Source: Blasia pusilla
Taxonomy: Eukaryota
Reading direction: 5' to 3'
NCBI GenBank assembly: GCA_050084515.1
Contig: CM114271.1
Coordinates: 28,272,001-28,336,000 of the forward strand
DNA: 64,000 nt
This document shows positions 1,743 through 41,613 of the stretch, piece after piece. How positions within the stretch are numbered: position 1 is the stretch's first letter; each line of letters opens with the position of its first letter. The notes below the pieces were generated by a model, which did no database searches, was not told where the DNA came from, and was given only the letters and a program-made list of their open reading frames with translations. The position numbers were made by a program, and so were the translations under genes.

Positions 1743-1760
1743 TCCCCGGCAGCGGCGCCA
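1743..1760 (-). other. tRNA primer-binding site (Athila type, likely tRNA-Asp)
   Basis: TGGCGCCGCTGCCGGGGA 3 nt downstream of the LTR terminal CA on the minus strand. Confidence 0.75.
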
Positions 1761-1763
1761 AAA

Positions 1764-3032: not shown

Positions 3033-3649
3033 ATACTCCCCATGCAACATCTCCACTAGTCCTGCTCCAACCAAGTCTTGGCTCCTACTCTGAATCAGAG
3101 CCCTCTCCATATCACTGTACTTGTAGGATCGTTGAAAGATTGACGTATCACTCGACAACTCAATGCGGATCCCCGGTCCATTTAGCGTACCCAAATGCTC
3201 CATGCTAAACGCAAAACAGCTCCTATAACTCTTGAGGAACTAATGTATCCGGCGCCGCTCTCCTCCTCTCAACTTAGGGCCCATATCTGGCTCCCAAGTC
3301 TCCATCGTGACTACGGTAGGACTCTCCGGCGCGGGTATCGGTGGTTGCTATGATGCAACCCCGTCTCGAACAACACTCGGCCGCTCTCCCACAGCCAACT
3401 GCAAACTCTGATCTCCTCCACGTGCAATGCTTGGAACCACGCTTGATACTATGGCTATCATCTCCTGGCGTACCTGCAAAACATCCCAAGAAGTCCAAAG
3501 GTGTCTCTCCTGATCTCCCCTGGTGTCTAGATCTCCTCGGGTCTCGCCCCCAACCACTGCCTCCACCGTCGTTGTAGGCGTGGGGCTTACCAACGCAACC
3601 GTTGTGATCTGTCGTGATCTCACAGGGTGCTGCTCAACCACTCTCAAGC

Positions 3650-4590
3650 TAAGGATCCATGTCAAGCAGTTCATGTCAATCGTCTGACCCAAGACATGGC
3701 GTCTTGATGCCTCTGACATTGACGGTACTATCGTCAATCCTGTGGGAAATCCCATCGCTTGCTCTCTCTCGTTGGCGTTGGGCTCCACCAACCACTGAAC
3801 CTAGTCATCCCAAACCAAGCCAAGACCGGCCTCCTTGTATGCATAAGAAGCGGGAAAACTCACAAACGTGGGCAAGGCTGCCCGTGGTCTGCCTACCCTA
3901 TTGACCACAGTCAACAATGGCCGATCATCGTGCGTCACTGCCTGTGATCGATGACCTGGATCTAGAATGGAATCCACTAACAAATGAGAGGGGCGCTCCA
4001 CTCTTGCATATGCCTTCTGTAACATCCCATGGGGCACCAAGTTGGTCCACCATAGACACGGGCGATGGGCTCTAGAACCTACACTCGCCGCATCCAAGAA
4101 CACTGTTGGGCCGATCCAGGCACGCACCTGATGAGCACTCATCACCACCCGTGACCTGGAGTCTCCTAAGATCGGCACATTCTCCAAAATGTTGGTTGGA
4201 GAACGAGACTAGTGCTCTTGCAACTCTTGTAAGATCCTCAACATCTCCCAAAACAACCTGGACCGAGTGTCAGCCAACCCGCTGCCTTGTCCAACACTTG
4301 ATTGGCCCAGACCTGGCCAACCGGAAATGACCAAATCAATGGTCCCTACCCGCTCTAAGTCATGCGCCCCCAAGAACGAAATATCCCTCGGTAGGGAACT
4401 CTACTACCCCTATACCGCGGACGCAACAATGAGTCGGGAAAACGTAGGCATAACTGCGCCACATGTCGTATTGAGACACACCTCGCAACATCATCACTCT
4501 CCACATCCATGTATTGTTGTACTCGCACTCTTGCCTGCAAAACAGTAGCTAACCTGATGCTAATCCTTCCAAAGAGATCTAACATTCGAA
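3650..4590 (-). pseudogene. C5 cytosine DNA methyltransferase domain (E2, frameshifted; catalytic Cys appears as Gly)
   Basis: LDLFGRISIRL, DLVISGWPGLG, ENVP, RAHRPCLWWTN, ANEREQAMGFP, RRHVLGQ. Confidence 0.8.
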
Positions 4591-4597
4591 TACCCTC

Positions 4598-5323
4598 CTA
4601 CGGGATACACCACACAATGGGTGTGGTATCCAAGGATGTCATTGTAGCACTCCCTGCTACCTCGGGTTCCTCAGACCCGTCATGCTCCGCTGCAAACGCC
4701 TCGCTCCACGCGGTTTGCACGTGCTCATCTGCCAATCGTCCAAGCTCCTCAGTCGAGCCCCACAGCGGCACCTCTCCTCCAAGGAATGATGCGGCTACCA
4801 TAACACTCCTCTCCATAGAAATGTCAGGAACGGGAGTATCCTCTGCATAGACATGTCCCTCAATCAAATCACTAGGCCAAGTGATGGCACTGCTAAATGC
4901 TGCTAAGGTCGTCATCTCTCCTAGTCGTTGCTCGATCACTACACTTGTGAATCGAATGGGTAATGAGCTAAGACGCCCATCACATGACTGCCATCCTAGT
5001 CTGTAGGACCCAGACTCTTCCGTATAATCCAAGGAAAACCCCATCGGGTATAACACTGCTCCACCAACCAAGACGTCGTAGGACTTTGCATCAGTCACTA
5101 TCGCCTTGGCTCGCACCAAAGACTCATCTGTAGGATGTCCTGGGTGAATCCTCACCACAACTTCTTTTCGGGTGATATACTGTGTGGTACTTGCTTCACC
5201 CAAGGATTTTTGTATCCGGAATGGATAACGCTCCTCATCGGCTCTCGTCAAGCCCAATCCTCTGAATGACGCTTTCCCCAATATCAAGGGTTGCGCTCTT
5301 GAATCCAACAAGACGAGCTGCAC
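4598..5323 (-). pseudogene. Aspartic protease and linker (E2)
   Basis: VLLDSRAQPLILG ... YDVLVGGAVL; retropepsin-like D(S/T)G variant. Confidence 0.7.
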
Positions 5324-7822
5324 TCGTTTCTCCCATCGCCCTCAGTGCCTGCACACCAACAACATCACCAACTCTCCAGGTTCTTTGATAAAGACCCATC
5401 GATGGGGTCCTCATCGCTTCGGACAACGTGAAAGACTGAGGAAGCCTAGTTTGTTTCCTGGCTTCCCCTCGCGGTGGATCCAACTCTGCGGCTACTCCAT
5501 GCGTCACAACTGCAGCGGCGTCCATCAGGGCAACCCCGTACATCCAACCAGGATCCTCCATATCTCTAGCTGCTCCATATGATGTTGATGCCACGGATCC
5601 GGCATCAGGTAACCTCAATACCATAGCGGCAATCCACTCGTGTAGCTGTTGTATCTTAACAGCCATCCTAGCCTCACGTCTGACGTCTCCCTCGGCACGT
5701 CTAGGTGGTGGTACTCTACCTCCTCCACGGGCAGCTCCACCACCCTTTCGGGAAACTCCAACTCCTCGTCCCCCAACAGAACCACTTGGTGCACGATCTT
5801 TAGCCCGCCCAGACCGGCTACTCGCTCTGGTGCCCTCTATGGCCCTCGATCCGGACATAACTCTGGATGTAAACTGAAACACGTGGCGCGTGTATGACCA
5901 TACCTCTGACAATAGTCATACTGATAACCACCTGATGTAGCACCATCTCCTCCCCATGGTGAGGCACACGTCCATGACCCTTACGAGTGCAATCGCACTG
6001 ATGATGGGCTCCACCACATGATCAACAAGTAATAGTAGGTGGTTTTTGTTGAGCCGCAGGTCTCTATGGCACAGCCTCCTGGTATCCTCCCTGAGCTCGT
6101 GGTGGCACATTCGACCTATCCTGGAGTCCACGTTGTTGCACTGGTGGTGCAGCCAATCTTGATTGCTCTCGCCTAGAACCCATGGTGGCTACGCTCTCCT
6201 CCGCCATATTGCGCTCAATGTTCTCGGCGGTCCTAAGAACATCTCTCAATATAGGGGAGGTGTTCATAAGAAGCACCCCCTCCCGCACCCGTGTCCGTAG
6301 GGTCCGTTCCAGCATCGCGTACCATGACTAGATAGCTTGAGCCTCTATCATCCCCTGAGTGATGTTGATCAACCGGTGCAAGCGAGAGTAAGCCTCACAC
6401 AAACTCTCACCCGGGCGCCTCTAGAAGTCGTGGATGCTCTGTAACTTCTCTGTCCGTACCCCCTGGTAGCTTGCCCTCAACTTAGCAAAGAACTCAACCA
6501 TAGGGTTGAACCTGGGACAAACCTAGACAGTGCAACTGCTCCCGTACGAGTGACCCCTCCTAAAACGTCACAAGAGGAAGATGAAGTAGCCTCTCATGAC
6601 TCCTCCTCCTCATTTGGGAATGACTCCGTCCATGACACATAATGTGGGTCATAGTAGAGCCTCCACGCCTCGATTTGACGTGCGTATCTTTAAGAGAACT
6701 CATGGTAATCGTCCATGGGCGCCCCCTCTAAATGCTTGAACATACCGCTCCATGCTATAAACGGGCTAAACTCTCTAGAGTTCCTGGCCTGCTGGGAGTT
6801 GCACCAACTCCTAGACTCTGCTATGAAATCGTGCAACTCAATCGTACCTACTACACCTGAAAACCCACGCGGTCCTCTACGTCATAGCTTTTCAAGATGG
6901 ACGCCGTGATGACCCTCGTGCCCCTCTCACCCGATCACTCTCGCCTCACAAGTAATCCCTCAATCACTCATCCCAAACATGCGCACTCGATGTACACTCT
7001 CCCTCCCCGAGACGTGTAACGTGCGGCGACAAGCGGCGTGGTGCGGAAAATCGACCAGGTTATCATCTCATCGACAACCTACCCTCAACTCCGAACATCC
7101 CACACATGTCTATGTCCCCTAAACCATATACATAAATTATACTCTCAACATCCACACACCCAATATCCCCAAATAAACTACCCAAATCCCAGAATCCCTC
7201 ACGTGCAGGGTAAATGACCAGAATAAATAACATGAACACATGTCGATGTCACTCCTCACCAATTGCAAATCTTGACCCCAACTCGGTCGTGGAGACAACT
7301 CCTCCAATCAACAAGTCATACTCATCCCGTATTGACGTTGCTCAAAACTCCTCGATAGACAGTGCGGTTCCAGCGGAACGGTGCGGCGTTGTAGGCGGCA
7401 CGGAATGGCTATGAACGGCATGGCTCTCGATGGTGGGATGGGGCACTCGACGGCATATCCTCCTCAATCAACAATAAACCCACACACTGCTCCACGATGA
7501 GGGTGCGGCCACGAGCGGTAGGGCGCGGTAATCGGCGGCGCGCTGCGGCTACGAGCGTCACGGCACGGTACTCGATCGTCGTCGAGTGGCTACCAATCAC
7601 AACAAAGCAGCATGAAATCAAAACTTAAACACCATAACCAGAGGTCATCTGCCATCACTGGTTGATGACGAAACTCCAATGACAGTGGTGGCCAAAACAA
7701 AGTACGTGGTGGCGATGCAAGTCAGAGAATCAAAAAATGTCGTGGAAGACCCTCCACTCCGTAACGACGACAATGGCAACCAAAGGATGGACAACGAACA
7801 GTCGACCGTTGACGGTGACAAT

Positions 7823-8346
7823 TGTCACGACTGTTAGGATAGATCGGTGGGATCTAGAAGAGCGTCTTCAGGAGTAGTGGAGGACAGGCCCATGAGGTCG
7901 AGAATGACCTGTTGAGGCCCCGGGAAACTTGAGAGAGCAGGTTTCCCCTTTGTTACGGCTCATTACCATTCGTTACGGAGCCATATAGAGAAACTTACTA
8001 TTTCAGGTAAGTTTCCATATTGAGGATAGTTGATTTTCTATTTTTGGTAAGTGGCCCTTGACCTCCTACATCAGATCAAGAGCCAAGGAGGTGACTTGGG
8101 AGCATAGGTTACCATGGAGAGAGCTTGGGAGAGGGGAGGGATATACCTCAAGGAGAGAGAGCTTGAGAGCTTATTCTCTCTTTGTTGAACCTCTTGGCAT
8201 GAGGCGGCGGAGCTATGGTCCCTTGCCTTGTGAGTGTAACCCAAGCCTCTCATTAGGAGAGTGGGTTTGGTTTGACATGAGAGAGAGTGCACACCTTTGA
8301 GAGCTATGGTGTGGGATGGTGTAGAGAGAGATTGGATCTTACTTTA
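7823..8346 (+). repeat. A1 terminal repeat of E1
   Basis: Direct repeat of 17352-17864; identity ends at GGATCTTACTTTA. Confidence 0.9.
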
Positions 8347-9880
8347 CAAAGAGAGAATGAGAGAGTGAGAGCGCTACAATGTCGGGAGCTTGCTGGATTT
8401 TTGCTGTGTGTGCAGGTTAGGGACCATGTTCCCTACTTCATGACTCATGAGAGTGCTCACAGGAGCAAGAGTCATTCAATTTGCTATTTTCCTTTACCGT
8501 TTTTTCGTACAAAAGAGTGGCGCGCGGAAGCGCTGCCCAAATGTTGGTAGAATTTGAGTGTGTGGGCGGATTACCCACGCCAGTGCTCTCGGGAGCACTG
8601 TGTAGCTTTCTGATTTGTCTTTTCACAGGTTTTACATTTTCGTTGGGAGAAATCAGCGCGGAAGCGCTTCCGAATTTTGGGGAGAAGAAAGAGACGTTGG
8701 GGTTTACGACAGTCCCCATCAGTTCTTATAGGATTTTTTGATTCAAAATATGTTTTTACTCCATTGTAGATCTTGAAGCTGCGCACGTTGTGCAATAGAT
8801 GGTGCGCGATTTGGAGCTGCGAGCATAAAGTTATGGCTAATTTTGTAAACTGCCAATTTTAGGGTAAAAATCGAAACTCTAAAGCCGCAGTCGCCGTTGG
8901 CGGCGCCGTCACCGTCGACCACCGTCACCGTCAACATGGACCACCGTCGCCATCACCGTTGACCACCGTTGTAGTCGCCGTCGCCATCGGACAAGATGTC
9001 AACCCGTCGCCTGGCCGTCAACCCGTCGCCAGGACGTCAACCCTTCATCAGGCCGTCAACCCTTTGCCATGCCCTTTGACCCGTCAGCTAGCCCGTTACC
9101 CGTCAAGCTGTCGTCGACCGACTGGAGTACTATTCTGGATGACGTGTGACCCAATGATTTATGGGGTCCAAGTTTTCTAGCCGCGTTACTATGTTTTGAG
9201 TTGGAAGCCGCTCCATGAAGATTGAGGACTGTGACGTGTCGCCCGTAGCCGCAACGCGCCGCCGATTTCCGCGCCGTGCCGCTCGTGGCCGCACCGCACT
9301 GTCTCGATCGCGGAGCCGCACCGTCATTGTAGAGTAGATTGTGTTTTGCAGGTTTGAGGAGTTTGGCTTCACAACCGAGTTGGGGTCAAGATTTACAGTT
9401 GCTAAGGAGCGACATTGACATGTGTTCACGTTACCCATTCTGGTCCTTTACCTAGCACGTGTTAGGGATTTTGGGATTTGGGTAGTTTATATGGGGATCT
9501 TGGGTGTGTGGATGTTGAGAGCATCAGTTATGTATGTGGTTTAGGGGACATAGACCTGTGTGGGATGTCCAAAGTTGAGGGTAGGTTGTCGATGAGATGA
9601 TAGTTTGGTCGATATGTCGCACCACGCCGCCTGTTGCCGCATGTTACATCTCTCGGGGAGGGAGAGTGTAGATCGAGTGACGCATGTTTGGGATGAGTGA
9701 TTGAGGGATTACTCACGAGCTTCAGAGTGATTGGGTGAGAGGGGCACGAGGGTCATCACGGAGTCCGTTCGGGACTTTGAGAGGCCAGGTGGTGAACCCG
9801 AGAGTAGTTCTAGAGGTTTTACGCAGAGTGGCGCGAGGTTCCGAGGGTCTCCACGTGAGGGACCACCTTGACCTCCTTCT

Positions 9881-11396
9881 ATGTCATCGTCAGACAAGGG
9901 GGAGGGTGTAGAGGAGTTTGTGAGCACATCGCCACACATTGTGAGTGGTCCTACCAGTTGGGCGTACGAGATGGACGACCGGGGTAGAGGACCGCGTAGG
10001 TTTTCAGGTGCAGTAGGCACGATTGAGTTGCACGATTTCATAGTAGAGTTTAGGAGTTGGCGTGACTCCCAGCGGGCCAAGAACTCTAGAGAGTTCAACC
10101 CGTTTACATCATGGAACGGTATGTTCCAGCATTTAGAGGGGGTGCCCATGGACGATTACCATGAGTTCTCTTAGAGATATGCAGGTGAGATCGAGGCGTG
10201 GAGGCTCTACTATGACCCACATTATGTGTCATGGACGGAGCTGTTCCCATATGAGGAGGAGTCAAGAGAGGCTACTTCCTCTTCCACTAGTGACGTTTTA
10301 GGAGGGATGACTCCCACGGGAGCACTTGCACCGTCTAGTCGGGTTTGTCCCAGGTTCAACCCTGTGGTAGAGTTCTTTGCTGAGTTGAGGGCGAACTACC
10401 AAGGGGTACGAACGGAGAAGTTGCGGAGCATCCACGACTTCCAGAGGGGCCCGGGTGAGAGTTTACGTGAGGCTTACACTCGCTTGCGCCGGTTGATCAA
10501 CGTCACTCAGGGGGTGACAGAGGCTCAGGCTATCCAGTCATGTACGCGATGCTGGATCGGACCCTGCGGACACGGGTGCAGGAGGGGGTGCTTCTTATGA
10601 ACACCTCCCCTACATTGAGAGATGTTTTTAGGACTACCAAGAACATTGAGCGCAACATGGCGGAGGAGAGCGTAGCCACCATGGGTTATGGGTGAGAGCA
10701 ATCACGATTGAGCAGCAACGTGGACTACGAGATAGGTCAACTGTGGAACCACAAGCTCAGGGAGGATACCGGGAGGCCATGCCACAGAGACCTGCGCCTT
10801 CATATGCGGCTCAGCAGTAGTCGCTTACTATTACTTGTTGGTCATGTGGTGGAGCCCATCATCATCGCGATTGCACTCGTTAGGGTCATGGACGTGTGTC
10901 TCAGCATGGAGGAGGAGATAGTGCTGCACCAATAGGTTCTTAGTGTGACTACTGTCAGAGGTATGGTCAGACACGCGCCAGGTGTTTCAATTTACATCCT
11001 GAGTTACGTCTGAACCGAGGGCTAGAGAGATCACCAGAGCGAGAAGCCAGTCCGGGTGGGCCTAGAGATCGTGCACTAGGTGGTCCCGTTGGGGGACGAG
11101 GAGCTGGAGTTGCCCGACAAGGTGGTGGAGCTGCCCGTGGAGGAGGTAGAGAACCACCACCTAGACGGGTCGAGGGAGACGCCGGACATGAGGCTGGGAT
11201 GGCTACTCAGATACAGCAGCTACAGGAGCAGATTGCCGCTATGGCATTGAGGTTACCCGATGCCGGATCCGTGGCATCGACATCATATGGAGCAGCCAGA
11301 GATTTGGAGGATCCTGGTTGGATGTGCGGGGTTGCCCTGATGGAGGCCGCTGCTGTTGTGACGCGTGGAGCAGCCGCAGAGTTGGATCCACGGTGA
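9881..11396 (+). pseudogene. Gag with two zinc knuckles (E1, disrupted)
   Basis: PRRFSGAVGTIELHDF, FQRGPGESLREAYTRL (retrotrans-gag-like), CWSCGGAHHHRDC and CDYCQRYG-TRARC knuckles. Confidence 0.8.
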
Positions 11397-11914
11397 GGGA
11401 AGCCAGAAAACAGACTAGGCTTCCTCAGTCTTTCACGTTGTCCGAACCGCTGAGGACCCCATTGATGGGTCCTCATCAAAGTTCCTTGAGAGTTGGTGAT
11501 GTTGTTGGTGTGTAGGCATGGAGGGCGATGGGAGAAGCGAGTTTGAGGACTCTTATTGTTGATGCTCAGGAGGGGCATGTGTCGAGCACGTTGTTGGGGG
11601 CGGCCATCATTGTGTGCCGCACTCCTTTATTTTCTGCTTCCGATGTTATGACGTTGGGGGGTACGCCCGCCAAGGCTTTTCGGCTGGCCGCTTCACTATG
11701 TGAGCGCGGAGTTGGAGTTCTTGCATCACGTTCAGAGGTGATTGCAGAGGAGGTGATGGACCTGCCCTTGGAGCGGATGCTCGGGCGGTCCACGTCAGAT
11801 TCATGGCAGGCTGCGGTTGCTAGGATGGCGGAGATGCGCGCTAGACCGGCGATAGAGCATGCCATGGCTTCTCTTGGTGTTGTGTTCCTAGATAACTGAG
11901 GAGAGGTCTTCCAC

Positions 11915-12514
11915 TTGGTGAGTCCTGGAGGTAGAGCTTTTAGTCCGCAGCGTGTCTTGTTGGATTCAAGAGCGCAACCCCTGATGTTGGGGAAAGCGTC
12001 ATTCAGAGGATTGGGCTTGACGAGAGCCGATGTGGAGCATTGTCCATTCTGGATACTGACATCCTTGGGTGGCGCGAGTACCACACAGTATATCACCCGA
12101 CAGGAGGTTGTGGTGAGGATTCGCCCGGGACATCCTACTGATGAGTCTCTGATGCGCGCCAGGGCAATAGTGACAGATGCAGAGTCCTACGACGTCTTGG
12201 TTGGTAGAGCAGTGTTATACCCGATGGGGTTTTCTATGGATTACTGGGAGGAGTCAGCGTCCTACAGACCAAGATGGCAGTCATGTGATGGGCGCCTTAG
12301 CTCATTACCCGTTCAATTCACATGTGCAGTGATCAAGCGACGGCCAGGAGAGATGGCGACCTTAGCAGCATTTAGCAGTGCCATCACTTGGCCTAGTGAT
12401 TTGATTGAGGGACATGTCCATGCAGAGGATACTCCCGTTCCTGACATTTGTATGGAGAGGAGTGTTATGGTAGGTGCATCATTCCATGGAGGAGAGGTGC
12501 CTCTCCTCCACTGA
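11915..12514 (+). pseudogene. Aspartic protease (E1)
   Basis: RVLLDSRAQPLMLG ... YDVLVGRAVL. Confidence 0.75.
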
Positions 12515-12684
12515 GGAGCACCTCTCCTCCAGAACTTCGACGATTGGCAGATGAGCACGTGCAGACCGTGTGGAGCGAGGCATTTGCACCGGAGCGTGAC
12601 GGGTCTGAGGTACCCGAGGTAGCAGGGAGTGCTACGATGACACCCTTGGATACCACACCCATTGTGTGGTGTACCCCGGAGGAG

Positions 12685-13630
12685 GGTATTCGAGTGTTAG
12701 ATCTCTTTGGAGGGATAAGCACCGGGTTAGCTACTGTTTTGCAGGGAGGAGTGCGAGTACAGCAGTATCTGTATGTGGAGAGTGATGATGTTGCGAGGCG
12801 CGTCTCACTACGACATGTGGCGCAATTACGCCTATGTTTTCTCGACTTATTGTCTATGTCCGCAGTACAGAGGTATCAGAGTTCCCTATTGAGGGATATT
12901 TCGTTTTTGGGGGCGCAGGACTTAGAGCGGGTAGGGACCATTGATTTGGTTATTGCCGGTTGGCCATGTCAAGGCCAATTGAGTGCTGGACGAGGCAGCG
13001 AGTTGGTTGACACTCGGTCCATGTTGTTTTGGGAGATGTTGAGGGTCTTACGGAAGTTGCAGGAGCACCTGTCTCGTTCTCCAGCCTACATTCTGGAGAA
13101 TGTGCCGATCTTAGGAGACTCCAAGTCACGGGTGGTGACAAGTGCTCATCAAGTGCGTGCCTGGTTCGGCCCAGCAGTGTTCTTGGATACGGCGAGTGTA
13201 GGTTCTAGAGCCCATCGCCCGCGTCTATGGTGGACCAACTTGGTGCCCCATGCGATGTTATGGAGGGCGTATGCGAGAGTGGAGCGCCCCCATTTGTTAG
13301 TGGATTCCATTCTGGATCCAGGTCGTCGATCAGAGGCAGTGAGGCACGATGATTGACCACCGTTGACTGTGGTCAAGAGGGTGGGCAGGCCGCGGGCAGC
13401 CTTGCCCACGTTTGTGAGTTTTCCCGCTTCCTATGCATACAAAAAGGCCGTTCCTGGCTTGGTTTGGGATGACCAGGTTCAGCGGTTGGTGGAGCCCGAC
13501 GCCGACGAGAGAGAGCGAGAGATGGGATTTCCCACAAGAGTGACGGCAGTACCGTCAATGTTAGAGGCATCACGACGCCATGTCTTGGGTCAGGCGATGG
13601 ACCTGAACTGCTTGACATGGATCCTCAGCT
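12685..13630 (+). pseudogene. C5 cytosine DNA methyltransferase domain, DNMT3/DRM-like (E1; one internal stop)
   Basis: Motif I VLDLFGGISTG, II YVESD, IV DLVIAGWPCQG, VI YILENV, VIII RAHRPRLWWTN, IX EREREMGFP, X RRHVLGQAMD, in canonical order. Confidence 0.92.
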
Positions 13631-14039
13631 TGGGAGTGGCTGAGCAGCATCGTATGAGATCGCGACAGATCACAGGGGTTGCGTTGGTGAGCCCCATGCC
13701 TACCGAGATGGTGGAGGTAGTGGCAGGGGGCGAGACCCGAGGAGATCTACGCACCAGGGGAGATTGGGAGAGACACCCTTGGACTTCTCGGGATGTTTTG
13801 CAGGTACGCCAGGAGATGATAGCCATAGCATCGAGCGTGGTTTTGGGCACTGCACGTGGAGGAGATCAGAGTTTGCAGTTGGCTGCAGGAGAGCGGCCGA
13901 GTGTTGTTGTTCGAGACGAGGTTGCACCATAGCAACCACCGATACCTACGCCGGAGAGTCCTACCGTAGTCACGATGGAGACTTGGGAACCAGATATGGG
14001 CCCTAAGTTGACAGGAGGAGAGCGGCGCCGAATACATCA

Positions 14040-15470
14040 GTTCCTCAGGAGTTATAGGAGTTTCTTTGCATTTAGCATGGAGGATTTGGGTACGCGGAAG
14101 GGACCGAGGATCCGCATTGAGTTGTCGAGTGATACGCCAATCTTCCAATGATCCTACAGGTACAGTGATATGGAGAGGGCTCTGATTCAGAGTAGGAGCC
14201 AGGACTTGGTCGGAGCAGGACTAGTGGAGATGTCGCATGGGGAGTATTGCATCTGCCATTGTCATGCCCGCCAAGAAGGATGTGCATGGCAACTGGATGG
14301 ATAGGCAGATGTGTGGCGATTACCGACCTATCAATCGGCATACGAAGTCCGATAGGTATGCCATGCCCACCCCTGAGGAGATCTTTGATACGATTGGTCA
14401 CGCAAAGGTCTTCAGTTCATTGGATTTGCGAGCCGGATACCATCAACTGCCTATCACATTGGAGGACATGCAGAAGATGGCATTTTGGGGCATCGATCCT
14501 CACGGGAAGGATTGTTTGTACCAGTGGCGGTTCTTACCATTTGGGTTAAAGAATGCTCCGGCTGAGTTTCAGAGGGTCATGGATAGGATCTTGGCTGGTC
14601 TGGATTTTTCTAGGTGTTATATTGATGACATCGTGGTCTTAAGCGCCACGGTTGAGAGCATGAGCGGCATCTAGAGGAGGTGTTTCGACGATTGCAATTA
14701 CATGGGCTGAAGCTACATCCAGGAAAGTGCAAGTTCTTCTACGACCAGATTGAGTACTAGGGTCATACGATATACTCATGGGGCCTTGGTGTTCAGTTGA
14801 CGAAGGTAGAGGCATTCCACGCATTCCACGCCCTACAGATGTGAGCCGTGTTCATGCATTTGTGGGATTGGCGAACTTCTATCGGCGATACGTCAAGGGA
14901 TTGAGTTCGATTGCGAAGCCGCTGACCTTGCTGACCAAGGTGGATCAAGAGTGGCACTGGGGAGATGAGCAAGAGCGAGCATTTTAGTTGCTCAAGGACA
15001 GGTTGATGTCTACGCCGATCTTGAGGAGACCGATCAGGGGGCGTCCTTTCCAGTTGCACACAGATTGGAGCATGTTGGGGCTTGGAGCGGTGCTCACCCA
15101 GCATGATGATGAGGGTAGAGAGTTTGTGGTGGCTTATGCTAGCCGCTCAAACAATGCAGAAGAGGCGAAGTACAGCTCGTATGAGGGTGAGTGCTTGGCT
15201 GCGGTGTGGGCTGTCGCGCATTTCAGGTGTTACTTATTCGGCAACCCCTTTACCATCATCACTGATCATCAACCACTGAAGGGGTTGATGGAGTCAGACA
15301 AGCTTACAGGGAAGCTTGCGAGATGGGCTCTGTTGTTCCACGAGTATGATTTTCAGGTGGTACATAGACCTAGGACGCTCAACCAGGATGCAGATGGGTT
15401 GAGTCGTAACCCATGCCTGAGTCAACAAGATGCGATTGGAGCTCGATGGCATGGAGAGAGTGATCAGGAG
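14040..15470 (+). pseudogene. Reverse transcriptase and RNase H (E1, disrupted)
   Basis: MCGDYRPIN, LDLRAGYHQ, LPFGLKNAPAEFQR, CYIDDIVV; RNase H LHTDWS, EGECLAAVWAV, TDHQPL, DADGLSR. Confidence 0.92.
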
Positions 15471-15699
15471 TAGGTGCCAGGATGGCACCCGTCAGCCTAT
15501 TTAGGCATGTTGGCTATGGAGAGCCAGAGTGTGGAGACTTCGATGGTGAGGTCTAGTGGAGAGTCCTTGGATCCCGAGGCCAGTGAGGAGACGGCAAGTG
15601 GCAGAGATATTCATGATGATGGAGTAGTCTTGGAGTACCTTCGTATTGGCAGCGTTGCGAGCACCGTGGATGCTAGAGAGCGGGATCGGATCCTACAAC

Positions 15700-16860
15700 G
15701 GGCCAGACGGTTCCGTTGGGAGGGGACACACGTTTTGAGGGTTTGGGAGGATGGCAGAGTACGCGTAGTGCCGCATCCTTCGCATAGAGCACGACTAGTG
15801 CAGCATGCCCACGAGGAGTTGGGTCACTTTGGGGTGAAGCGGACGTACAGCTTGCTCCAGATTCAGTATTGGTGGCGAGGCATGCAGACTGACGTTCAGC
15901 AGTTTGTTGCCAAGAGCATGGTGTGTGATCGGGTCCGAGCATCGTTCAATGCTCTAAATCCACAGTTGCATCCATTACCGATCACGGGCTTAGGGTATAG
16001 ATGGAGTTTGGATTTTGCAGGACCTTTGCCTTTGACGGAGCGTCATACTCGTTATGTGTTGGTGATGGTCGAGCACTTCTCGAAGTGGATCGAGTTGGTT
16101 GCATTGCTTGACAAAGCGAGTGAGGGAGTAGCTTATGCCTTCCTTGACAGAGTGCTGAGTCATTATGGCGCACCGGCTGAGATGTTGACAGACCAGGGTA
16201 CCGAGTTTTGCGGTGAGTTCCAGGCCTTGTGTGATCAGGCGCTGATCGACCACCGCACGACTTCGCGAGATCATCCCGAGGCGGATGGATTAGCGGAGAG
16301 AGTTGTGCAGATTGTGAAGAGGGGTTTATGCAAGTATGGCTTGCAGAGAGGGCACCTAGGAGGTTGGGATCTCTAGTTGCCATGGTTGGCGATGGGATTC
16401 AGATTCAACATGCAAGCATCCTTAGCGTCGTTTTCACCATACTTGCTACTTTATGGCCGAGAGCCAGATTTACCTGCGGCCATTTGTCGAGATGTTGGTG
16501 AGGTGCTAGACCTTGATGACCCAGATATATGGGTGTGAGCATATTCTCAGAGGTTTGAGTTGTTTCGGAAAGTGATGCCCATGGCGTTCGAGAACTTGGC
16601 GATTGCGCAGCATCGAGATACGTTGAGGTATGCGACTATTCGGGGTGGTGGTTATCGACCAACTATGCGGAGGTTTCATCAGGGAGATTATGTCTACTTG
16701 CAGCAAACGGCACCGACGACGTTGGATGTGATTGAGGGCGCAATATCCTGAGAGTGCGTGACGTTTTGCCATCCGGTGTTCTCTTGCTGGAGGGACGCGA
16801 TGGTATGGTATGGAAGAACCATGTGTGTAATTGTGCGCCATGTCACCTTCCTAACATTGA
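15700..16860 (+). pseudogene. DDE integrase (E1)
   Basis: HAHEELGHFG zinc-binding region; WSLDFAGPLP, VEHFSKW, LTDQGTEF, HPEADGLAERVVQ. Confidence 0.92.
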
Positions 16861-16899
16861 TGGTCAAGTAGATCCGAGCTTAGCAATAGTTCCTGCAGG

Positions 16900-17046
16900 C
16901 TTGCGTTGTATGTTGTGTAGTTATGCCCGTGGTGCGGCCACGATGCTAGTCTGTGATGGATGCTCGAGAGGTTGGCATATGGCATATCTGACGCCACCTC
17001 TCACTAGGGTTCCTCGGGGATGATGGATATATCCCAGATGTACATA
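16900..17046 (+). pseudogene. C-terminal PHD finger (E1)
   Basis: CMLC...MLVCDGCSRGWHM...LTPPLTRVP.G.W..P.C; complete C4HC3 in the E4 copy. Confidence 0.85.
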
Positions 17047-17224
17047 GAGGAGATACTAGGTAGGTTTCGATTCCAACTTTTTCTGTGATAGGGATGACAG
17101 GAAGGCGACTAACGATGGGGCCACATGAGCACCCGGCCTTTCTGCTCTTAGAGTCCTAGAGATATATGTCGTGGTAGGTAGGGATAGATGGCTATCTGGA
17201 GTTAGAGGGACCTAACCACCAGCT

Positions 17225-17234
17225 AGGGGGGCGA
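17225..17234 (+). other. Polypurine-tract-like motif immediately 5' of B1
   Basis: AGGGGGGCGA; near-identical at the same position in E3 (25031) and E4 (49024-49033, minus). Confidence 0.55.
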
Positions 17235-17974
17235 TTGGAGATATTTTGGTACTTCTCGCCTCTATGTATGGATGCCATGAGTTAGCATGGGATCGTGTGT
17301 GTTTGATGACAACGATGTATGTTGTGTAGCGATATGTATGCGCACGACAGTTGTCATGACTATTAGGATAGATCGGTGGGATCTAGTAGAGCGTCTTCAC
17401 AAGTAGTAGAGGACAGGCCCATGAGGTCGAGAATGACTTGCTGAGGCCCCGGGAAACCTGAGAGAGCAGGTTTCCCCTTCGTTTCGGCTCATTTGAAGCC
17501 ATATAGAGAAACTTACTATTTCGGATAAGTTTCCATGTTGGGGATAGTTGGATTTCTATTTTTGGTAAGTGGCCCTTGACCTCTTACGTCAGGTCAAGAG
17601 CCAAAGAGGTGACTTGGGAGCATATGTTACCATGGAGAGAGCTTGGGAGAGGGGAGGGGTATATCCCAAGGAGAGAGAGCTTGAGAGCTCATTCTCTCTT
17701 TGTTGAACCTCTTGGCATGAGGTGGCGGAGCTATGGTCCCTTGCCTTGTGAGTGTAACCCAAGCCTCTCATTAGGAGAGTGGGTTTGGTTTGACATGAGA
17801 GAGAGTGCACACCTTTGAGAACTATGGTATGAGATGGTGTAGAGAGAGATTGGATCTTACTTTATTGGAGATATTTTGGTACTTCTCGCCTCTCTGTATG
17901 GATGCCATGAGTTAGCATGGGATCGTGTGTGTTTGTGTGTGTGTTCGATGACAGCGATGTGTATGCGCATGACA
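17235..17974 (+). repeat. B1-A2-B2 3' terminus of E1
   Basis: B1 17235-17349, 2-nt spacer GT, A2 17352-17864, B2 17865-17974. Confidence 0.9.
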
Positions 17975-18634
17975 CAGTTGACCGTTGATGGTGACGGTGA
18001 CGATTGACCATCTATGGTGATGGTTGACCGTCGCTGGCGGACCATTGACGGTGACTATGATGGCGACGGTCGTCGCCGGCGTGGCGGCTGGTTTAGGGTT
18101 TGAACAATTTAACCCTAAAAAATACCTAGCAATGGCAGTTTTGCAAGATTGACCATAACTTTTTGCTTGCAACTCCACATTGCGCACAACGTACACAGCT
18201 TCACAATCTACAACAATGTCAACAAATATTTAGAATCAGAAATTCCAGTAAAAACTGACGCGGACTGTCGTAAAGCCCAATGTCTCTTTCTCCTACATAA
18301 AATTGAGCAGCGCTTCCGCGCTGATTTCTCCCAACAAAAATGTAAAACCTATAAAAATACAAATCAGCAAGCTATATGGTGCTCCCCAGAGCACTGACAT
18401 GGGGCAACTTGCCCCCATAATCAATCTCTATCAGAAATTGGGCAGCGCTTCCGCGCGCCACTCTTCCACACGAAAAATTGGCAAATACAAAGAACAATCA
18501 AAGCAGCCCTTGCTCCGGTGAGCACTCCCGTGAGCAGCTGAATGGGGAACACGGTCCCTAATGTGCAAAACAACAAGTGACCAGCGAGCTCCCCCATGAA
18601 GATCTCTCTCTCTCATTCTCTCATTCTCTCTTTG

Positions 18635-19147
18635 TAAAGTAAGATCCAATCTCTCTCTACACCATCTCACACCATAGCTCTCAATAGTGTGCACTCTCCC
18701 TCATGTCAAACCAAACCCACTCTCCTAATGAGAGGCTTGGATTACACTCACAAGGCAAGGGACCATAGCTCCGCCGCCTCATGCCAAGAGGTTCAACAAA
18801 GAGAGAATGAGCTTTCAAGCTCCCTCTCTTGGAGGTATACCCCCTTCCCTCTCCCAAGCCCTCTCAACGGTAACCTATGGTCGTAGGTCACCTCCTTGGC
18901 TCTTGATCTGCTCTAGTGGGTCAAGGGCCACTTCCCAAAGTGGAAAGTCAACTGTCCCTAATATAGAAACTTACCCAAAATAGTAAGTTTCTCTATATGG
19001 CTCCAAATGAACCAAAACGAAGGGAAAACCTGCTCTCTCAGGTTTCTCGGGGCCTCAGCAGGTCATCCTCGACCTCCTGAGCCTGTCCTCCACTACTCGT
19101 GAAGATGCTCTACTAGATCCCACCAATCTATCCTAAAAGTCGTGACA
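18635..19147 (-). repeat. A1 terminal repeat of E2 (not followed by B)
   Basis: Reverse complement of A; continues into CAAAGAGAGAATGAGAG exactly as E1 A1 does. Confidence 0.88.
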
Positions 19148-19344
19148 CATCAGTCTGTGGAGGAGAGGTGTCGCCTTGGGGCTTGACTTAGGAGCTTCGA
19201 CGCTTAGCCACTGAGCATGTGCAGACCACGTGGAGCGAGACACTTGCACTAGAGTGTGACGGGTCAGAGGAACCCCATGTAGGCAGGAGTGTTGCTATGA
19301 TCGCTTTGGACACCACCCGAATTGTGTGGTGCATCCCTGAGAAG

Positions 19345-20290
19345 GGTATTCGGGTATTGGATCTCTTTGGAGGGATCAACATTGGGTTAGCTATTGTTTT
19401 GCACCTTGGAGTGCGCGTGCAGTAGTACCGGTATGTGGAGATTGATGATGTTACAAGGCGCGCTTGACTTCACCATGTGGCGCTGTTACGCTTCCATTTT
19501 CCCGACTTGTTGTCTGCGTCCGCCATTTAGGGTTACCAGAGTTCCCTACCGAGGGACATTTCATTGTTGAGGGCGCAGGACTTGGAGCGGGTAGGCACCA
19601 TAGACTTGGTCATTGCTGGTTGGCCGTGTCAGGGCCAATCGAGTGCTGGACGAGGAAGCGGGTTAGATGACACTCGCTCCATGTTGTTTTGGGAGATGAT
19701 GCGGATCTTGCGACATTTACAAGAGCATCAACCTCGTTCTCCAACATATATTTTGGAGAAAGTGCCAATTTTGGGCGATTTGAGGTCCGCGTGGTGACGA
19801 GTGCACATCAAGTGCCTGTATGGATGGGCTTGGAAGTGTTGTTAGATGCGATAAGTGTAGGTTCTAGAGCACATCGCCCGCATCTTTGGTGGATCAACTT
19901 GGTACCACATGAGATGTTGCGGACGACTTATGTGACACTGGAGCGTCCCTCTAATTTATTGGTGGATTCTAGATTGGATTCAAACCATCGATCACAAGCA
20001 GTGTGGCACAATGATCGACCGCCGTTGATTGTGGTCAACAAGATTGGCATGCCACAAGTAGCCTTCCCCACATTGGTGAGTTTTCTCGCTTCCTATGCAT
20101 TCAAGGAGGCCGGACGTGGCTTGGTTTGGGACGGACCAGGTATAGATGTTGGTGGAGCCCAATGCTGATGAGCGAGAGTGAGCGATGGGATTCCCCACAT
20201 GAGTGACGGAAGTACCATCACTATCACAGGCATCACGACGTCATGTCTTGGGTCAGGCAATGGACCTGAATTTCTTGACATGGATTTTCA
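19345..20290 (+). pseudogene. C5 cytosine DNA methyltransferase domain (E3, frameshifted)
   Basis: VLDLFGGINIG, DLVIAGWPCQG, YILEKVP, RAHRPHLWWIN, RRHVLGQAMD. Confidence 0.85.
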
Positions 20291-23086
20291 GCTTAGGAGT
20301 AGCTGAGCAACGTCGTTTGAGGATGCAACGGATCACAAAAGTTGCGTTAGTGAGCCCCATGCCTACCGCGATGGTTGAGGAAGTGGCTGAGGGTGAGACT
20401 CGAGGAGATTGACACACCAGGGGATGATTGGGGGAGACACCCTTGGACTTCTTGGGATGTTTTTGCAGGTACGTGAGGAGATGATAGCCACAGCATCAAG
20501 CGTGGTTCTGGGTACTGCACGTGGAGATGAGAGTTATATTGTCCAAGATGGGGTTGCACCATAGCAACCATCGACATCCGCGTCGGAGAGTCCTACCGTA
20601 GTCACGATGGAGACTTGGGAGCCACATATGGGCCCTAAGTTGACAGGAGGAGAGCGGTGTCGAATACATCAATTCCTTGGGAGTTATAGGAGTTGTTTTG
20701 CATTTATTATGCATGATTTGGATACGCTAAAGGGTCCAAGGATCCGCATTGAGTTGTCGAGTGACACGCCGATCTTCCGACGACCCTACATGTACAATGA
20801 CATGGAGAGGGCTATGATTCAGAGTAGAAGCCAGGACTTGGTTGGAGTAGAACTAGTGGAGATGTCGCATGGAGAGTATGCATCTGCCACTATCATGCCT
20901 GCCAAGAAGAATGTGCATGGCAATTGGAAAGATAGGCGGAAGTGTGGGGATTACTGACCCATCAATCGGTAGACGAAATCCAATAGGTATACCATGCCCA
21001 CCCCTAAGGAGATCTTTGATGCGATTGGGCATCCAAAGGTCTTCAATTCATTGGATTTACGAGCCATATACCATCAACTGCCTATCATATTGGAGGACAA
21101 GTAGAAGACCGCATTTAGGAGCATCGATCCTCACGGGATGGATTGCTTGTACCAATGGGGGTTCTTACCATTGGGGTTAAAGAACACCCCGGTTGAGTTT
21201 CAGAGGATCATGGATACGATCTTGGGAGGTCTGGATTTTTCTAGGTGTTATATTGATGACATCGTAGTCTTTAGCGCCACAGTTGAGAAGCATGAGCGAC
21301 ATGACATCTAGAGGAGGTATTTCAACGATTGCACTTACATGGGCTGAAGCTACATCAAAGCAAGTGCAAGTTCTAGTACGACCAGATTGAGTACTTGGGT
21401 CATACGATATACTTGGGGGGCCTTGGTATGCAACAGACAAAGGTAGAGGCTATTTCATGCATTCCACGCCCTACAGATGTGAGTCAAGTTCGTGCATTCA
21501 TGGGATTGGCAAACTTCTATCGATGGTACGTCAAAGATTTCAGTTTGATTGCGAAGTCGCCAACCTTGATGACCAAGGTGGATGAGGAGTGGCATTGGGA
21601 GGATGAGCAAAAGAGAGCATTTAAGATGCTCAAGGACAGATTGATGTCCGCGCCCATATTGAGGAGACCGATCAGAGGTCGTCCTTTCCAGTTGCATACC
21701 GATTGGAGCATGTTGGGGCTTGGAGCCGTGCTCACCCAACATGACGATGATGGTAGAGAGTTTGTGGTGGGTTACCCTAGTTGCTCTAACAATATTGTAG
21801 AGGCAAAGTATAACTTGTATGAGGGTAAGTGCCTGGTTGCAGTGTGGGGTGTCGCACATTTCAGATGTTATCTATTCGGAATTCCCCTTACCATCATTAC
21901 TGATCATCAACCATTTAAGTGGTTGATGGAATCCAAAAAGTTTACAGGGAAGCTTGTGAGATGGGCTCTTTTGTTGCAAGAGTATGACTTCCAGGTGGTG
22001 CATAGACCTCGGATGTTCAACCAGGATGCAGATGGTTTTGAGTCGTAACCCATGCCTGAGTCAGCGAGATGCGACAAGAGCTCGTTGGCATGGTGAGAGT
22101 GATGAGGAGTTGGTTCTACGATGGCATGCGTGAACCTATTTGGGCTTGTTGGCTATGGAGAGCAAGATTGCTGAGATTTCGACGGCAAGGTCTGATGGAG
22201 AGTCCTTAGATCCACAGGCCGGTGAGGAGATGGAAGGTGGCCGAGATATTCATCACGATGGAGTGATCTTGGAGTACCTGCGTATTGGCAGCGTTGCGAG
22301 CACAGTGGGTGCTAGAGAGCGGGATTGGATCCTATAGCGAGCTAGACAGTTTTGGTAGGAGAGCACACATGTGTTGTGAGTGTGGGAGGATAGTAGAGTG
22401 AGTGTAGTGCCTCATCCTTTGTAGAGAGCACGTTTGGTGCGTCATGCCCACGAGGAGTTGGGTCATTTTGGAGTGAAGTGAACTTACAGCTTGCTCCAGA
22501 TTCAATGTTGGTGGCGAGGCATATAGATTGACGTTCAACAGTTTGTTGCCCGATGCATGGTGTGTGATGGAGTCCACAGTTGCATCCACTTCTGATCATG
22601 GATTTAGGTTATAGATGGTGTTTGGATTTTGCAGAACCTTTGCCTTTGACGGAGTGCCATAGTCGTTATGTGTTGGTGGTGTTCGAGCATTTCTCGAAGT
22701 GGATAGAGTTGGTTTCATTGCTTGACAAAGGGAGTGAGGGAGTAGCATATTCCTTCCTAGATTGAGTGTTGAGTCATTACGGCACACCGACTAAGGTGTT
22801 GATAGACCAGGGTACAGAGTTTCGCGTGGAGTTTTAGGCCTTGTGTGATTAGGCACTGATTGACCACTGCACTACTTCGCGAGATCATCCTAGACGGATG
22901 GACTAGGAGAGTGGGTTGTGCAGACGGTAAAGAGAGGACTACGCAAGTATGGCTTGAAGAGAGGTCACCTATGAGATTGGGACCTTCAGTTGTCGTGGTT
23001 GGCGATGGGATACAGATTCAACAGGCATACATCCTTAGTGTCTTTCTCACCATACTTGTTGCTTTATGGCTGAGAGCCACATTTAC

Positions 23087-41507: not shown

Positions 41508-41613
<106 letters not shown>

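Follow-up and report, generated by a model that had tools for sequence, protein, structure and literature searches.

Coding content of the element

The analysed stretch of DNA (the window, 64,000 nucleotides) contains at positions 7823-17974 of the plus strand one old, stop-ridden Ty3/Gypsy insertion, belonging to a family that carries a Dnmt3-like C5 DNA methyltransferase (DNMT). All features of this main element lie on the plus strand. Its long leader (8362-9985), which includes a low-complexity GTCACCGTCAACGG-like stretch, yielded no protein family match in the profile search and was the least conserved part of the element, with low DNA read depth. The leader is followed by a remnant of ORF1 (9986-13797), which is interrupted by stops and encodes a gag-like part, a putative CCHC/protease-like part and then the C5-DNMT; it aligned with residues 9-1243 of the Marchantia protein P0005. 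The DNMT was matched in Pfam at 12889-13131 (PF00145, E = 6.7e-9). The columns of the PCQ and EN motifs showed no or almost no variation across the aligned sequences; the main copy retains both. The closest DNMT matches came from Calypogeia fissa (63%) and Marchantia polymorpha (approximately 60%). Remnants of reverse transcriptase (RT) and RNase H occupy 14249-15482, with Ty3 as the best solved relative (E = 8e-14 for RNase H). The integrase remnant (15579-17041) comprises an H2C2 zinc domain at 15777-15941 (Integrase_H2C2, E = 1.4e-15) and an rve core at 15996-16277 (E = 4.8e-14), both identified in Pfam. The Ty3 Gag-Pol polyprotein was the best solved relative of the integrase (E = 2.3e-17), and the D, D and E columns were retained despite the decay. 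The pol order is RT-RNase H-integrase (rve, DDE), as in Ty3/Gypsy elements, in agreement with an earlier note on this DNA that had called the element Gypsy-type with a DDE integrase. The DNMT, which that note overlooked, precedes the RT inside the gag-protease ORF and ties the element to the known Gypsy-Dnmt3 kind. No chromodomain was matched in the Pfam search of the element pieces. A profile search for a tyrosine recombinase, which had been suggested in the same note, detected none at E ≤ 1 in nine pieces, five of which were frames of the leader, nor any at E ≤ 0.01 in ten pieces of the element, nor any in the proteins of six relatives, with the caveat that the Pfam phage-integrase model may miss DIRS-type recombinases; the rve integrase was found instead. 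Among the relatives, a second, widespread domain order (RT-RH-DNMT-INT-PHD) was also observed, Haematococcus included.

Repeat layout of the main element and of other copies in the window

The 5' end of the main element is formed by A1 (7823-8346, starting TGTCACGAC), which probably comprises U3 and R-U5 (the last ~177 nt). The 3' end consists of B1 (17235-17349, ending ...GCGCACGACA), a 2-bp spacer GT (17350-17351) between the CA end of B and the TG start of A, A2 (17352-17864) and B2 (17865-17974, ending ...GCGCATGACA); the coordinates of the A and B repeats had been given correctly in the earlier note. A1 and A2 matched at 92% over 524 nt. B1 (17234-17305) and B2 (17864-17935) were identical at 71 of 72 nt, and the remainder of B, up to 17349 and 17974, respectively, showed a TG-microsatellite length difference and some substitutions. 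The repeat comparison within the window found no B upstream of A1. The main element as a whole unit starts with TG, ends with CA and is flanked by a probable 4-bp target duplication, CAAT at 7819-7822 and CAGT at 17975-17978, which was scored 3/4 because of the single mismatch, a transition. The A2/B2 joint (17864/17865) looks like an LTR-LTR junction.

The main element was inserted into the leader of an older family member, copy H (minus strand; 3' part at 117-7604, 5' part at 18184-19147). The 5' end of H (19147 to 18635) reads flank-A-internal without B, and its breakpoint between A and internal sequence, CTTACTTTA/CAAAGAGAGAATGAG, is that of the main element, as had been claimed for a second B-less 5' end. 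Further B-A-B 3' ends, likewise reported earlier, were found at 25040-25800 (plus) and at 60180 to 59411 (minus), in the same internal-B-NN-A-B-flank order as in the main element. The first belongs to E3 (19192-25800, plus), an older copy split by H and ending internal-B-AT-A-B-flank; the second belongs to E6 (59411-64000, minus), ending internal-B-AC-A-B-flank. The 5' parts of both E3 and E6 lie off the window. A solo A-B unit (33177-33819, minus) is flanked by TCAT and CCAT and has one extra A at its A/B joint. E5 (48918-57961, minus) is a diverged copy of the simple form A-internal-B, without NN-A-B, and has a perfect 4-bp target duplication, AGGA, at 57962-57965 and 48914-48917. An active master copy was not seen, as every copy read is decayed.

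Architecture and target duplications across related loci

The architecture counts cover 80 related metagenome loci and the window and were not deduplicated; the metagenome loci probably represent one host genome, as they were drawn from a few related samples. In the window and these loci, the integrated form of the family is A-internal-B-NN-A-B rather than a unit with two equal LTRs. Among 46 visible A ends, 31 continued into internal sequence and 13 into B, and none of the 31 ends leading into internal sequence passed through B. All 24 A copies that were followed by internal sequence and had a visible start were preceded by flank other than B. When four duplicate loci were merged, there were 20 independent 5' ends of the order flank-A-internal, with B neither before nor after A, and 10 independent complete 3' ends of the order internal-B-NN-A-B-flank. 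Six copies had the simple form A-internal-B, and the mirror product (A/B-NN-A-internal-B) was seen neither in the 80 loci nor in the window. The A...B-A-B layout is far beyond chance, and the order repeats at unrelated flanks in the metagenome relatives, in two diverged families and in separate assemblies.

The 4-bp target duplications were perfect in seven of the nine elements with both ends visible (L025, TCTC; L038, CATA; L057, AAGG; L072, AATC; L023, CACA; L022, TGTT; and E5 of the window, AGGA) and matched at 3/4 positions in the other two, the main element and the solo A-B unit of the window. The family has the TG...CA termini and the 4-5 bp target duplication of Ty3/Gypsy elements but lacks their two identical outermost LTRs, as the left end carries A only and the right end A-B. 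Insertion as a single TG...CA unit with 4-bp duplications bears the hallmark of the DDE integrase of the family rather than that of a tyrosine recombinase. The earlier note had regarded A...B-A-B as a family trait rather than decay, and had named A-B at both ends, or duplications bracketing the terminal A-B only, as observations that would contradict it. None of the copies carries A-B at its 5' end, B precedes none of the 24 5' A copies, and the duplications bracket the whole A...B-A-B unit, all of which upholds a trait passed on by transposition.

Joints, priming signals and RNA

The spacer between B and A was 2 bp long in 11 of 12 joints. It was GC in four, as in the least mutated relatives, and AT, AC or GT in seven, all of these being transitions of GC; a deletion at the B-NN-A junction was found in one of 12. 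The B-NN-A joint is a palindrome of the form GACA-NN-TGTC, GACA-GC-TGTC with the GC spacer, in which two integrase-recognised termini lie head to tail, 2 bp apart. Extra bases were present at three of 12 A/B joints (L025, L023 and the window solo unit) versus none of 19 junctions between internal sequence and B, and in L023 the first 9 nt of the extra bases match the beginning of the primer binding site exactly. The contrast (3/12 versus 1/31 at the other junctions) is no more than suggestive of an A/B joint that is remade in each cycle.

A predicted primer binding site of the self-priming type (8346-8361) adjoins the end of A1, and a complementary site within A (8170-8185) is the predicted 5' end of the RNA and the predicted self-primer. 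This site, approximately 177 nt inside A, is complementary to the 16 nt following A1 at 15/16 positions in the main element and at 16/16 in copy H; 16/16 pairing was also found in L030 and in L057 with L055, which are one locus. A complement of at least 11 nt (at most one mismatch) was located 173-184 nt before the end of A in 12 of 17 5' ends. The sequences differ between the window and the metagenome family while the pairing persists, which is covariation, and the predicted RNA folds pair both ends (z-scores of −2.9 and −4.0). Such covarying pairing would represent a signature of Tf1-like self-priming. A conserved G-tract block (17198-17234, ending AGGGGGGCGA), the predicted polypurine tract, lies directly before B1 and not before A2, with no indels at 19 of 19 junctions between internal sequence and B; the RNA reads from a diverged subfamily map solely to this block. 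The RNA of the family was sense-stranded, with a depth of ~100-230 through the integrase, B1 and A2, and dropped from ~35-41 in the 3' part of A2 to ~2 in the bin with B2, as resolved in 354-base bins only and with most reads derived from other copies (85-95% alike).

Discussion

The earlier note is probably right that the family has a replication route of its own, one that differs from the textbook LTR cycle. The route that we tentatively favour, with a little less than even confidence and on sequence evidence, is a self-primed cycle in which a cDNA with B-NN-A LTRs integrates via an internal palindrome to give the A...B-NN-A-B provirus. The RNA would start in A1, ~177 nt upstream of the A1 end, and terminate within A2, its own 5' end would prime the minus strand at the site adjoining A1 (Tf1-type self-priming), and the G-tract before B1 would prime the plus strand. 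Given the predicted self-priming site at A1 and the G-tract at B1, the linear cDNA should be (B-NN-A)-internal-(B-NN-A). If B-NN-A is the LTR produced by ordinary reverse transcription, the genomic form would be a circular permutation of the cDNA. The integrase would bypass the physical cDNA ends, which would be joined either within a 2-LTR circle or through post-integration repair, creating the A/B joint, and would open the palindrome in the upstream LTR, leaving A-internal-B-NN-A/B. The simple A-internal-B copies would arise when the two palindromes are both opened, or by B x B recombination at a later stage, and the solo A-B unit by A x A recombination. However, a symmetric circle should also yield the mirror product, which was never seen. 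Its absence would need either a bias or rapid removal of this form through recombination of the two A copies that lie close together in it, a removal that would feed the six simple copies; these are equally explicable as secondary B x B deletions. With more reserve, we propose that the family stands for an entire lineage of DDE-integrase LTR elements in streptophytes, with a route new for LTR elements, in which the integrase may use LTR-internal palindromic att half-sites, the provirus may be a permuted cDNA and the LTR-LTR junction may be obligatory in competent copies.

The architecture could also result from a DIRS-like regeneration of the termini, which we consider unlikely. The RNA would begin within A1 and extend into or beyond B2, all joints including A2/B2 would be inherited via the RNA, B-NN-A would serve only as the template restoring the outer ends, and the DDE integrase would insert linear DNA. 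PAT/Ngaro-type elements have this repeat order, their polarity (A1...B1-A2-B2) fits the lack of mirror forms (0/24), and the A/B joints were exact in nine of 12. Nevertheless, the self-priming site at A1 and the G-tract at B1 predict a normal two-jump cycle in which B2 is never copied, and both the drop of sense RNA at the bin with B2 and the primer binding site remnant in the L023 joint argue against inheritance of B2 through the RNA. Less probable still is that the RT adds the extra B: in plus-strand synthesis, once the right LTR is done, it would switch end to end onto the left cDNA end, giving (B-A)-internal-(B-A)-B, and the integrase would bring together the start of the first A and the end of the last B, requiring neither a circle nor host ligation. 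Extra or templated bases at A/B joints, as in L025, L023 and the window solo unit, are typical of such switches, and the observed polarity would arise without a mirror product; yet it is not truly explained, as the minus strand could switch likewise at the opposite end. It is highly improbable that a tyrosine recombinase, undetected in the element or provided in trans, inserts a circle through the B/A joint as in DIRS elements, with the integrase as a relic. The split-repeat order would suit such an enzyme, as would the 1.6-kb leader (8362-9985) with no assigned function, but the leader is the least conserved part, the profile searches of the element pieces and of the proteins of six relatives were negative, the D, D and E residues persist even in the decayed main copy, and the 4-bp duplications and TG...CA ends are described as absent from DIRS elements in the consulted part of PMC8969392. 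A mundane rearrangement of a normal A-B LTR element (loss of the 5' B in one lineage, duplication of B before the 3' LTR and segmental duplication, or else an assembly error) would be in keeping with copies that are all old and nested in a repeat-rich region, but has hardly any likelihood left and is largely refuted by the independent ends (20 5' and 10 3') at unrelated flanks with their own 4-bp duplications, in two families and separate assemblies, by the lack of A-B-internal copies (0/31) and by the same order in Klebsormidium (Fig. 4c legend of PMC5890265).

The A...B-A-B order alone cannot indicate the integration enzyme, as this family combines all hallmarks of insertion by an integrase with a repeat order regarded as typical of tyrosine-recombinase elements. 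Software that detects LTR elements by a pair of equal terminal repeats will set wrong boundaries for such elements or split them, and A...B-A-B Gypsy-DNMT elements appear to be common in liverwort and moss genomes. If the self-primed, permuted-integration route is true, circular or end-joined cDNA would be a productive intermediate instead of a dead end, and the family would provide a DDE-based parallel that helps to explain the A...B-A-B order shared by PAT, Ngaro and TOC1. The route is testable, since public runs of the source organism contain RNA from this family. New here are the covarying putative self-priming site, the G-tract before B1, the predicted B-NN-A LTR with the genomic form as a putative circular permutation of the cDNA, the resemblance of the A/B joint to an LTR-LTR junction and the palindrome at B-NN-A.

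Comparison with known systems

The split direct repeats A1...B1-A2-B2 are shared with DIRS elements of the PAT, Ngaro and TOC1 types; TOC1 is a DIRS-type element with split direct repeats. In IS3/IS911-type insertion sequences, DDE-enzyme ends are abutted in circle junctions. The earlier note had called the architecture undescribed, which does not hold, as the Fig. 4c legend of de Mendoza et al. 2018 (PMC5890265) gives DIRS-like repeats (A-coding-B-A-B) for KnitGypsy-Dnmt3 of Klebsormidium nitens. By description, not by sequence, that element resembles the present one in being Gypsy-type, in the Dnmt3-like DNMT within its polyprotein and in its repeats. The passages of PMC5890265 on KnitGypsy-Dnmt3 propose no mechanism and describe neither target duplications nor a primer site, nor do they analyse the junctions; within the sources consulted, the Gypsy layout has been mentioned once in print, for an alga, and never explained. 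In contrast to the algal host, the host here is bryophyte-like by best DNMT matches. PAT/Ngaro-type elements have the order A1-internal-B1-A2-B2, in which the joined termini recur as an internal B-A joint, and are described in the relevant part of PMC8969392 as having a tyrosine recombinase and no target duplications, unlike the rve integrase, TG...CA ends and 4-bp duplications found here. As in Tf1/Sushi and plant Tcn1 elements, the sequence beside the 5' repeat appears complementary to the predicted RNA 5' end, whereas those elements have ordinary identical LTRs; self-priming is predicted for the Tcn1 clade, reported from moss species, in the pertinent section of Neumann et al. 2019 (PMC6317226). 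Retroviral 2-LTR circles, too, contain two DDE-enzyme ends that are separated by a few bp and together form a palindrome: according to the consulted parts of the respective reports, HIV-1 integrase cuts the palindromic LTR-LTR junction (PMC1905944) and foamy-virus integrase cuts 2-LTR circles (PMC1180852), yielding an integration-ready linear form. In retroviruses, however, the palindrome coincides with the ligation joint, so that cleavage there restores a normal provirus, while in the route proposed for this family the provirus would be permuted, because the palindrome lies inside the predicted LTR and the ligation joint, A/B, stays in the provirus.

Split repeats and termini of the main element

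The repeat coordinates put forward in the earlier note were correct, as both repeat matches were re-found. The two A copies (A1, 7823-8346; A2, 17352-17864) shared 92% identity across 524 nt. The two B copies were identical at 71 of 72 nt from positions 17234 (B1) and 17864 (B2) on; beyond these 72 nt, they differed in the length of a TG microsatellite and by some substitutions. When the window was searched, B was absent upstream of A1. The A repeat started with TGTCAYGAC and the B repeat ended with GCGCAYGACA; the unit is therefore of the TG...CA type with a short terminal inverted repeat. The sense strand of all copies (window 8000-18000 and the others) showed a strong excess of G over C (skew of about +0.2). 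The differences between copies and reads were mostly C>T and G>A, as methylated repeats would show.

Coding content

The plus strand of the main element contained 118-149 stop codons per frame, and every ORF was broken in three related full-length loci. The ORF pieces gave clear Pfam matches to RVT_1, RT_RNaseH, Integrase_H2C2 and rve, a match to the C-5 DNA_methylase family (E 6.7e-9) and a weak match to Retrotrans_gag (E 0.0011, under the Pfam cut-off). The domain order was gag-like, CCHC/aspartyl-protease-like stretch (a lead only), DNMT, RT, RNase H and integrase. For the second of these, the Atlas look-alikes of residues 200-830 of P0005 (a Marchantia protein aligned to ORF1; the residues correspond to mid-ORF1) were CCHC and aspartyl-protease clusters, all with scores below 0.9 and hence a lead only. 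The Ty3 Gag-Pol polyprotein was the best solved relative of the RNase H and integrase pieces alike, and the D, D and E columns of the integrase alignment were retained. The proposed identity of a DDE Gypsy element with split repeats was correct. The earlier note had made no mention of the C5 DNMT domain (12445-13797; Pfam match 12889-13131), in which the PCQ and EN motifs were retained. The proteins closest to the DNMT piece came from liverworts (Calypogeia fissa, 63%; Marchantia polymorpha, approximately 60%) and Sphagnum, and relatives of this region were annotated as host genes in the Marchantia, Calypogeia and Sphagnum protein sets.

The HMM search for a tyrosine recombinase that the earlier note had called for gave no Pfam match in 19 plus-strand ORF pieces or in six relatives' proteins. 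Protein alignments covered 9986-17041 without a gap roomy enough for another enzyme, and the sole stretch without an assigned function was the 1.6-kb leader, where conservation within the family was lowest. The case for absence of a tyrosine recombinase is strong but not absolute, since the Pfam model may miss recombinases of the DIRS type (the tyrosine-recombinase retroelements, e.g., PAT, Ngaro and TOC1).

Repeat order across the family

Alignment of these DNMT proteins retrieved 80 related metagenome-contig loci (DNMT identity 39-61%). They came from a few related samples and thus probably represent one host genome; their A and B repeats measured approximately 342 and 116 bp. Repeat orders were counted over the 80 loci and the window, not deduplicated. 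Among 46 A copies with a visible end, A was followed by the internal start in 31, by B in 13 and by other sequence in two. All 24 A copies with a visible start and internal sequence after them had flank other than B on their 5' side, with no case of B there, which excludes a complete A-B at both ends of most copies. Merging four same-flank locus pairs left 20 independent 5' ends. The composite 3' end, internal|B-NN-A-B|flank (NN, 2-bp spacer), was found at ten independent sites: L020, L025, L038 (the same locus as L056), L057, L064, L065, L072, the main element and window copies E3 and E6. For two further 3' ends (L010; L051 with L052), the contig end fell within A2. Six independent 3' ends were simple, internal|B|flank, with nothing beyond B (L021, L022, L041, L048, L059 and window copy E5). 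Given these B-less 5' ends and recurrent B-NN-A-B 3' ends, the A...B-A-B order is a family trait, as had been supposed.

Target duplications were scored in nine elements with both ends visible. In seven of them, the A start and the B end were immediately bordered by a perfect 4-bp duplication: L025 (TCTC), L038 (CATA), L057 (AAGG), L072 (AATC), L023 (CACA) and, in the simple form, L022 (2510-11240; TGTT) and E5 (48918-57961, minus strand; AGGA). The main element (CAAT/CAGT) and the window solo A-B (TCAT/CCAT) matched at three of four positions, with one transition each. As the duplications border the entire A...B-NN-A-B, the composite was inserted as one unit through a staggered 4-bp cut; duplications around the terminal A-B only, the other outcome considered in the earlier note, are likewise excluded.

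Nested and neighbouring copies

The main element is the youngest layer of a nest. It is flanked on each side by one half of the leader of H, an older copy of its own family (minus strand; 19147->18184 and 7604->117); these halves, once joined, were colinear with the main element's own leader. H itself interrupts the still older copy E3 (19192-25800, plus strand). The window also held a solo A-B (33819->33177), copy E6 with a B-A-B end (64000->59411) and the diverged copy E5 (57961->48918), which has the simple A-internal-B form and in which no terminal repeats were found. A long target duplication or recombinase core at the flanks of the main element was rejected, as the likeness of approximately 20 nt was a low-complexity repeat of the H leader. 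TTTAGGG-like motifs of the plant telomere type formed an inverted pair in the leaders of two copies (8856-8890 and 18095-18125). Elsewhere, there were a tandem array at 39878-40883 (period 352, 2.9 copies, 80% matches) and a (CT)50 run at 41510-41609. A 388-aa open frame (47418-48584, plus strand; RVT_1, E 7e-27) adjoined the 3' end of E5 and belongs to another retroelement, outside the main element's family by DNA.

Predicted primers, junctions and transcripts

The 16 nt starting at the last base of A1 were complementary to a site within A. In the window family, ACAAAGAGAGAATGAG was complementary to CTCATTCTCTCTTTGT, 177 nt ahead of the A end; copy H matched at 16/16 positions and the main element at 15/16. 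The metagenome family had a different pair, CTCAAAGAACTATGTT and AACATAGTTCTTTGAG, at 179-180 nt, where L030 and the single locus represented by L057 and L055 each matched at 16/16. Complementarity of at least 11 nt with at most one mismatch was present at that place in 12 of 17 5' ends, and was missing from L038, L025, L015, L035 and L028. The two ends were paired in predicted RNA folds (z-scores −2.9 and −4.0). Such covarying pairing reads as the signature of Tf1-type self-priming. Passages of Neumann et al. (2019, PMC6317226) describe self-priming as predicted for the plant Tcn1 clade, reported from moss species. The position of the pair would put the U5 end at the A end and the RNA start approximately 177 nt upstream. 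A primer site of the tRNA type (TGG...), whether following A1 or at the B start, was dropped, the families having only TGGTAC in common; B as the U5 of an A-B LTR was also dropped, because the predicted primer site adjoins A, not B.

A block of approximately 37 nt ending in AGGGGGGCGA adjoined B1 without an indel in all 19 internal|B junctions. It was almost identical between the window and metagenome families, and RNA reads of a diverged subfamily mapped on the window copy over this block only. The block is the predicted polypurine tract, placed ahead of B and not of A2. The distance from the B-end CA to the A-start TG was 2 bp in 11 of 12 B-NN-A junctions, and L051 carried a deletion across the junction. 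The spacer was GC in four cases (L020, L038, L057 and L010), AT in four, AC in two and GT in one, the last three being transitions of GC; with GC, the junction forms the perfect palindrome GACAGCTGTC. The internal|B and B-NN-A junctions together had one indel in 31. The A|B junction was exact (U5 end plus first B base) in 9/12 cases, with extra bases in L025 (approximately 19 nt), the window solo (one A) and L023 (15 nt, the first nine being the start of the predicted primer binding site). Aberrant LTR-LTR junctions of circles carry additional bases derived from the primer site. L023 (13262-13591; the same locus as L024) was also rearranged: its 3' A began near base 9 of the predicted self-primer, was preceded by a 43-nt stretch copied from the leader and was followed by a primer-site remnant and then B. 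This looks like a record of aberrant strand transfer.

Stranded RNA reads from raw runs bearing the same species label were mapped to the main element copy. Family RNA was in sense, with a depth of approximately 100-230 from RT through B1 and A2, 35-41 over the 3' part of A2 and approximately 2 in the bin containing B2. These depths fit an RNA that ends in A2 and excludes the A|B joint, but this reading has real limits: the reads were mostly only 85-95% like the copy, B reads were placeable on B1 and the bins spanned 354 bases. Neither a start nor an end of the transcript could be drawn from the mapped reads, and read joints between A1 and A2 were discarded as mapping effects of a two-copy repeat. 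At 14096-15167, 14 and 23 family reads skipped 1070 nt across RT; expression of a deletion derivative is the apparent reading. Small numbers of reads (4 and 8) connected 17178 to a place within A (17178->8142).

Proposed replication route

With the primer site at the A end and the polypurine tract before B, ordinary reverse transcription from the two predicted primers would give a cDNA of the form [B-NN-A]-internal-[B-NN-A], for which there was no genomic copy among the 80 loci and the window. The provirus would be a circular permutation of this cDNA: its physical ends would be joined into the A|B joint, via a 2-LTR circle or repair after integration, and integrase would open the palindrome within the upstream LTR. 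By reasoning rather than computation, if integrase cut the palindrome 3' of each CA, the CA-3'OH ends would be recessed and the 5' overhangs 2 nt long, which is the normal processed state. Precedents exist for HIV-1 and foamy virus, whose integrases cleave a palindromic LTR-LTR junction and 2-LTR circles (PMC1905944, PMC1180852). Simple copies would result either from the use of one half-site per LTR or from B x B recombination at a later time, and solo copies from A x A recombination. We favour permuted integration tentatively, giving it somewhat less than an even chance. Its main weakness is polarity, as the mirror form A|B-NN-A-internal-B, expected from a symmetric circle, was seen in 0/24 cases. 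This form would hold two long A copies only approximately 117 bp apart and, as an auxiliary assumption, could collapse fast into the simple one; this would agree with the six simple copies versus 12 composite 3' ends (10 complete, two cut by the contig end).

A DIRS-like, RNA-templated route is unlikely, and an end-to-end switch by the reverse transcriptase is somewhat less likely still. Mundane rearrangement, set against recurrent composites inserted as single units, and a hidden recombinase, for which the leader is the remaining room, are both very improbable. The suggestion in the earlier note of a replication route of its own is plausible and now testable.

Relation to known elements

The architecture had been suggested to be undescribed, but it is of a known kind: de Mendoza et al. 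(2018, PMC5890265) report Dnmt3-bearing Gypsy elements from Klebsormidium nitens and, in a single legend sentence, ascribe to them a DIRS-like repeat arrangement. The main-text passages of that paper offered no mechanism for this order. In the literature searched, 'KnitGypsy-Dnmt3' was found in PMC5890265 only, and nothing relevant on Marchantia DNMT retrotransposons was found. Searches by title and abstract for a DDE, Gypsy or integrase element with split direct repeats gave nothing but papers on DIRS elements and general reviews. None of these searches turned up a printed account of the target duplications, TG...CA ends, self-priming site, polypurine tract before B, palindromic junction or junction heterogeneity. 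A search of DNMT-bearing Gypsy proteins surfaced no Klebsormidium protein. It included many Gypsy polyproteins, most of them without a name (P0026-P0163), with the domain order RT-RH-DNMT-integrase-PHD finger. Their sources were metagenomes, transcriptomes of algae and Haematococcus lacustris; one was labelled bacterial (Minisyncoccia) at its source, probably from a mis-binned contig. The main element belongs to the known but barely described Gypsy-Dnmt3 kind. Its host lineage differs from that of the Klebsormidium elements, and its DNMT lies ahead of RT. Another domain order, RT-RH-DNMT-INT-PHD, is widespread both in environmental data and in Haematococcus.
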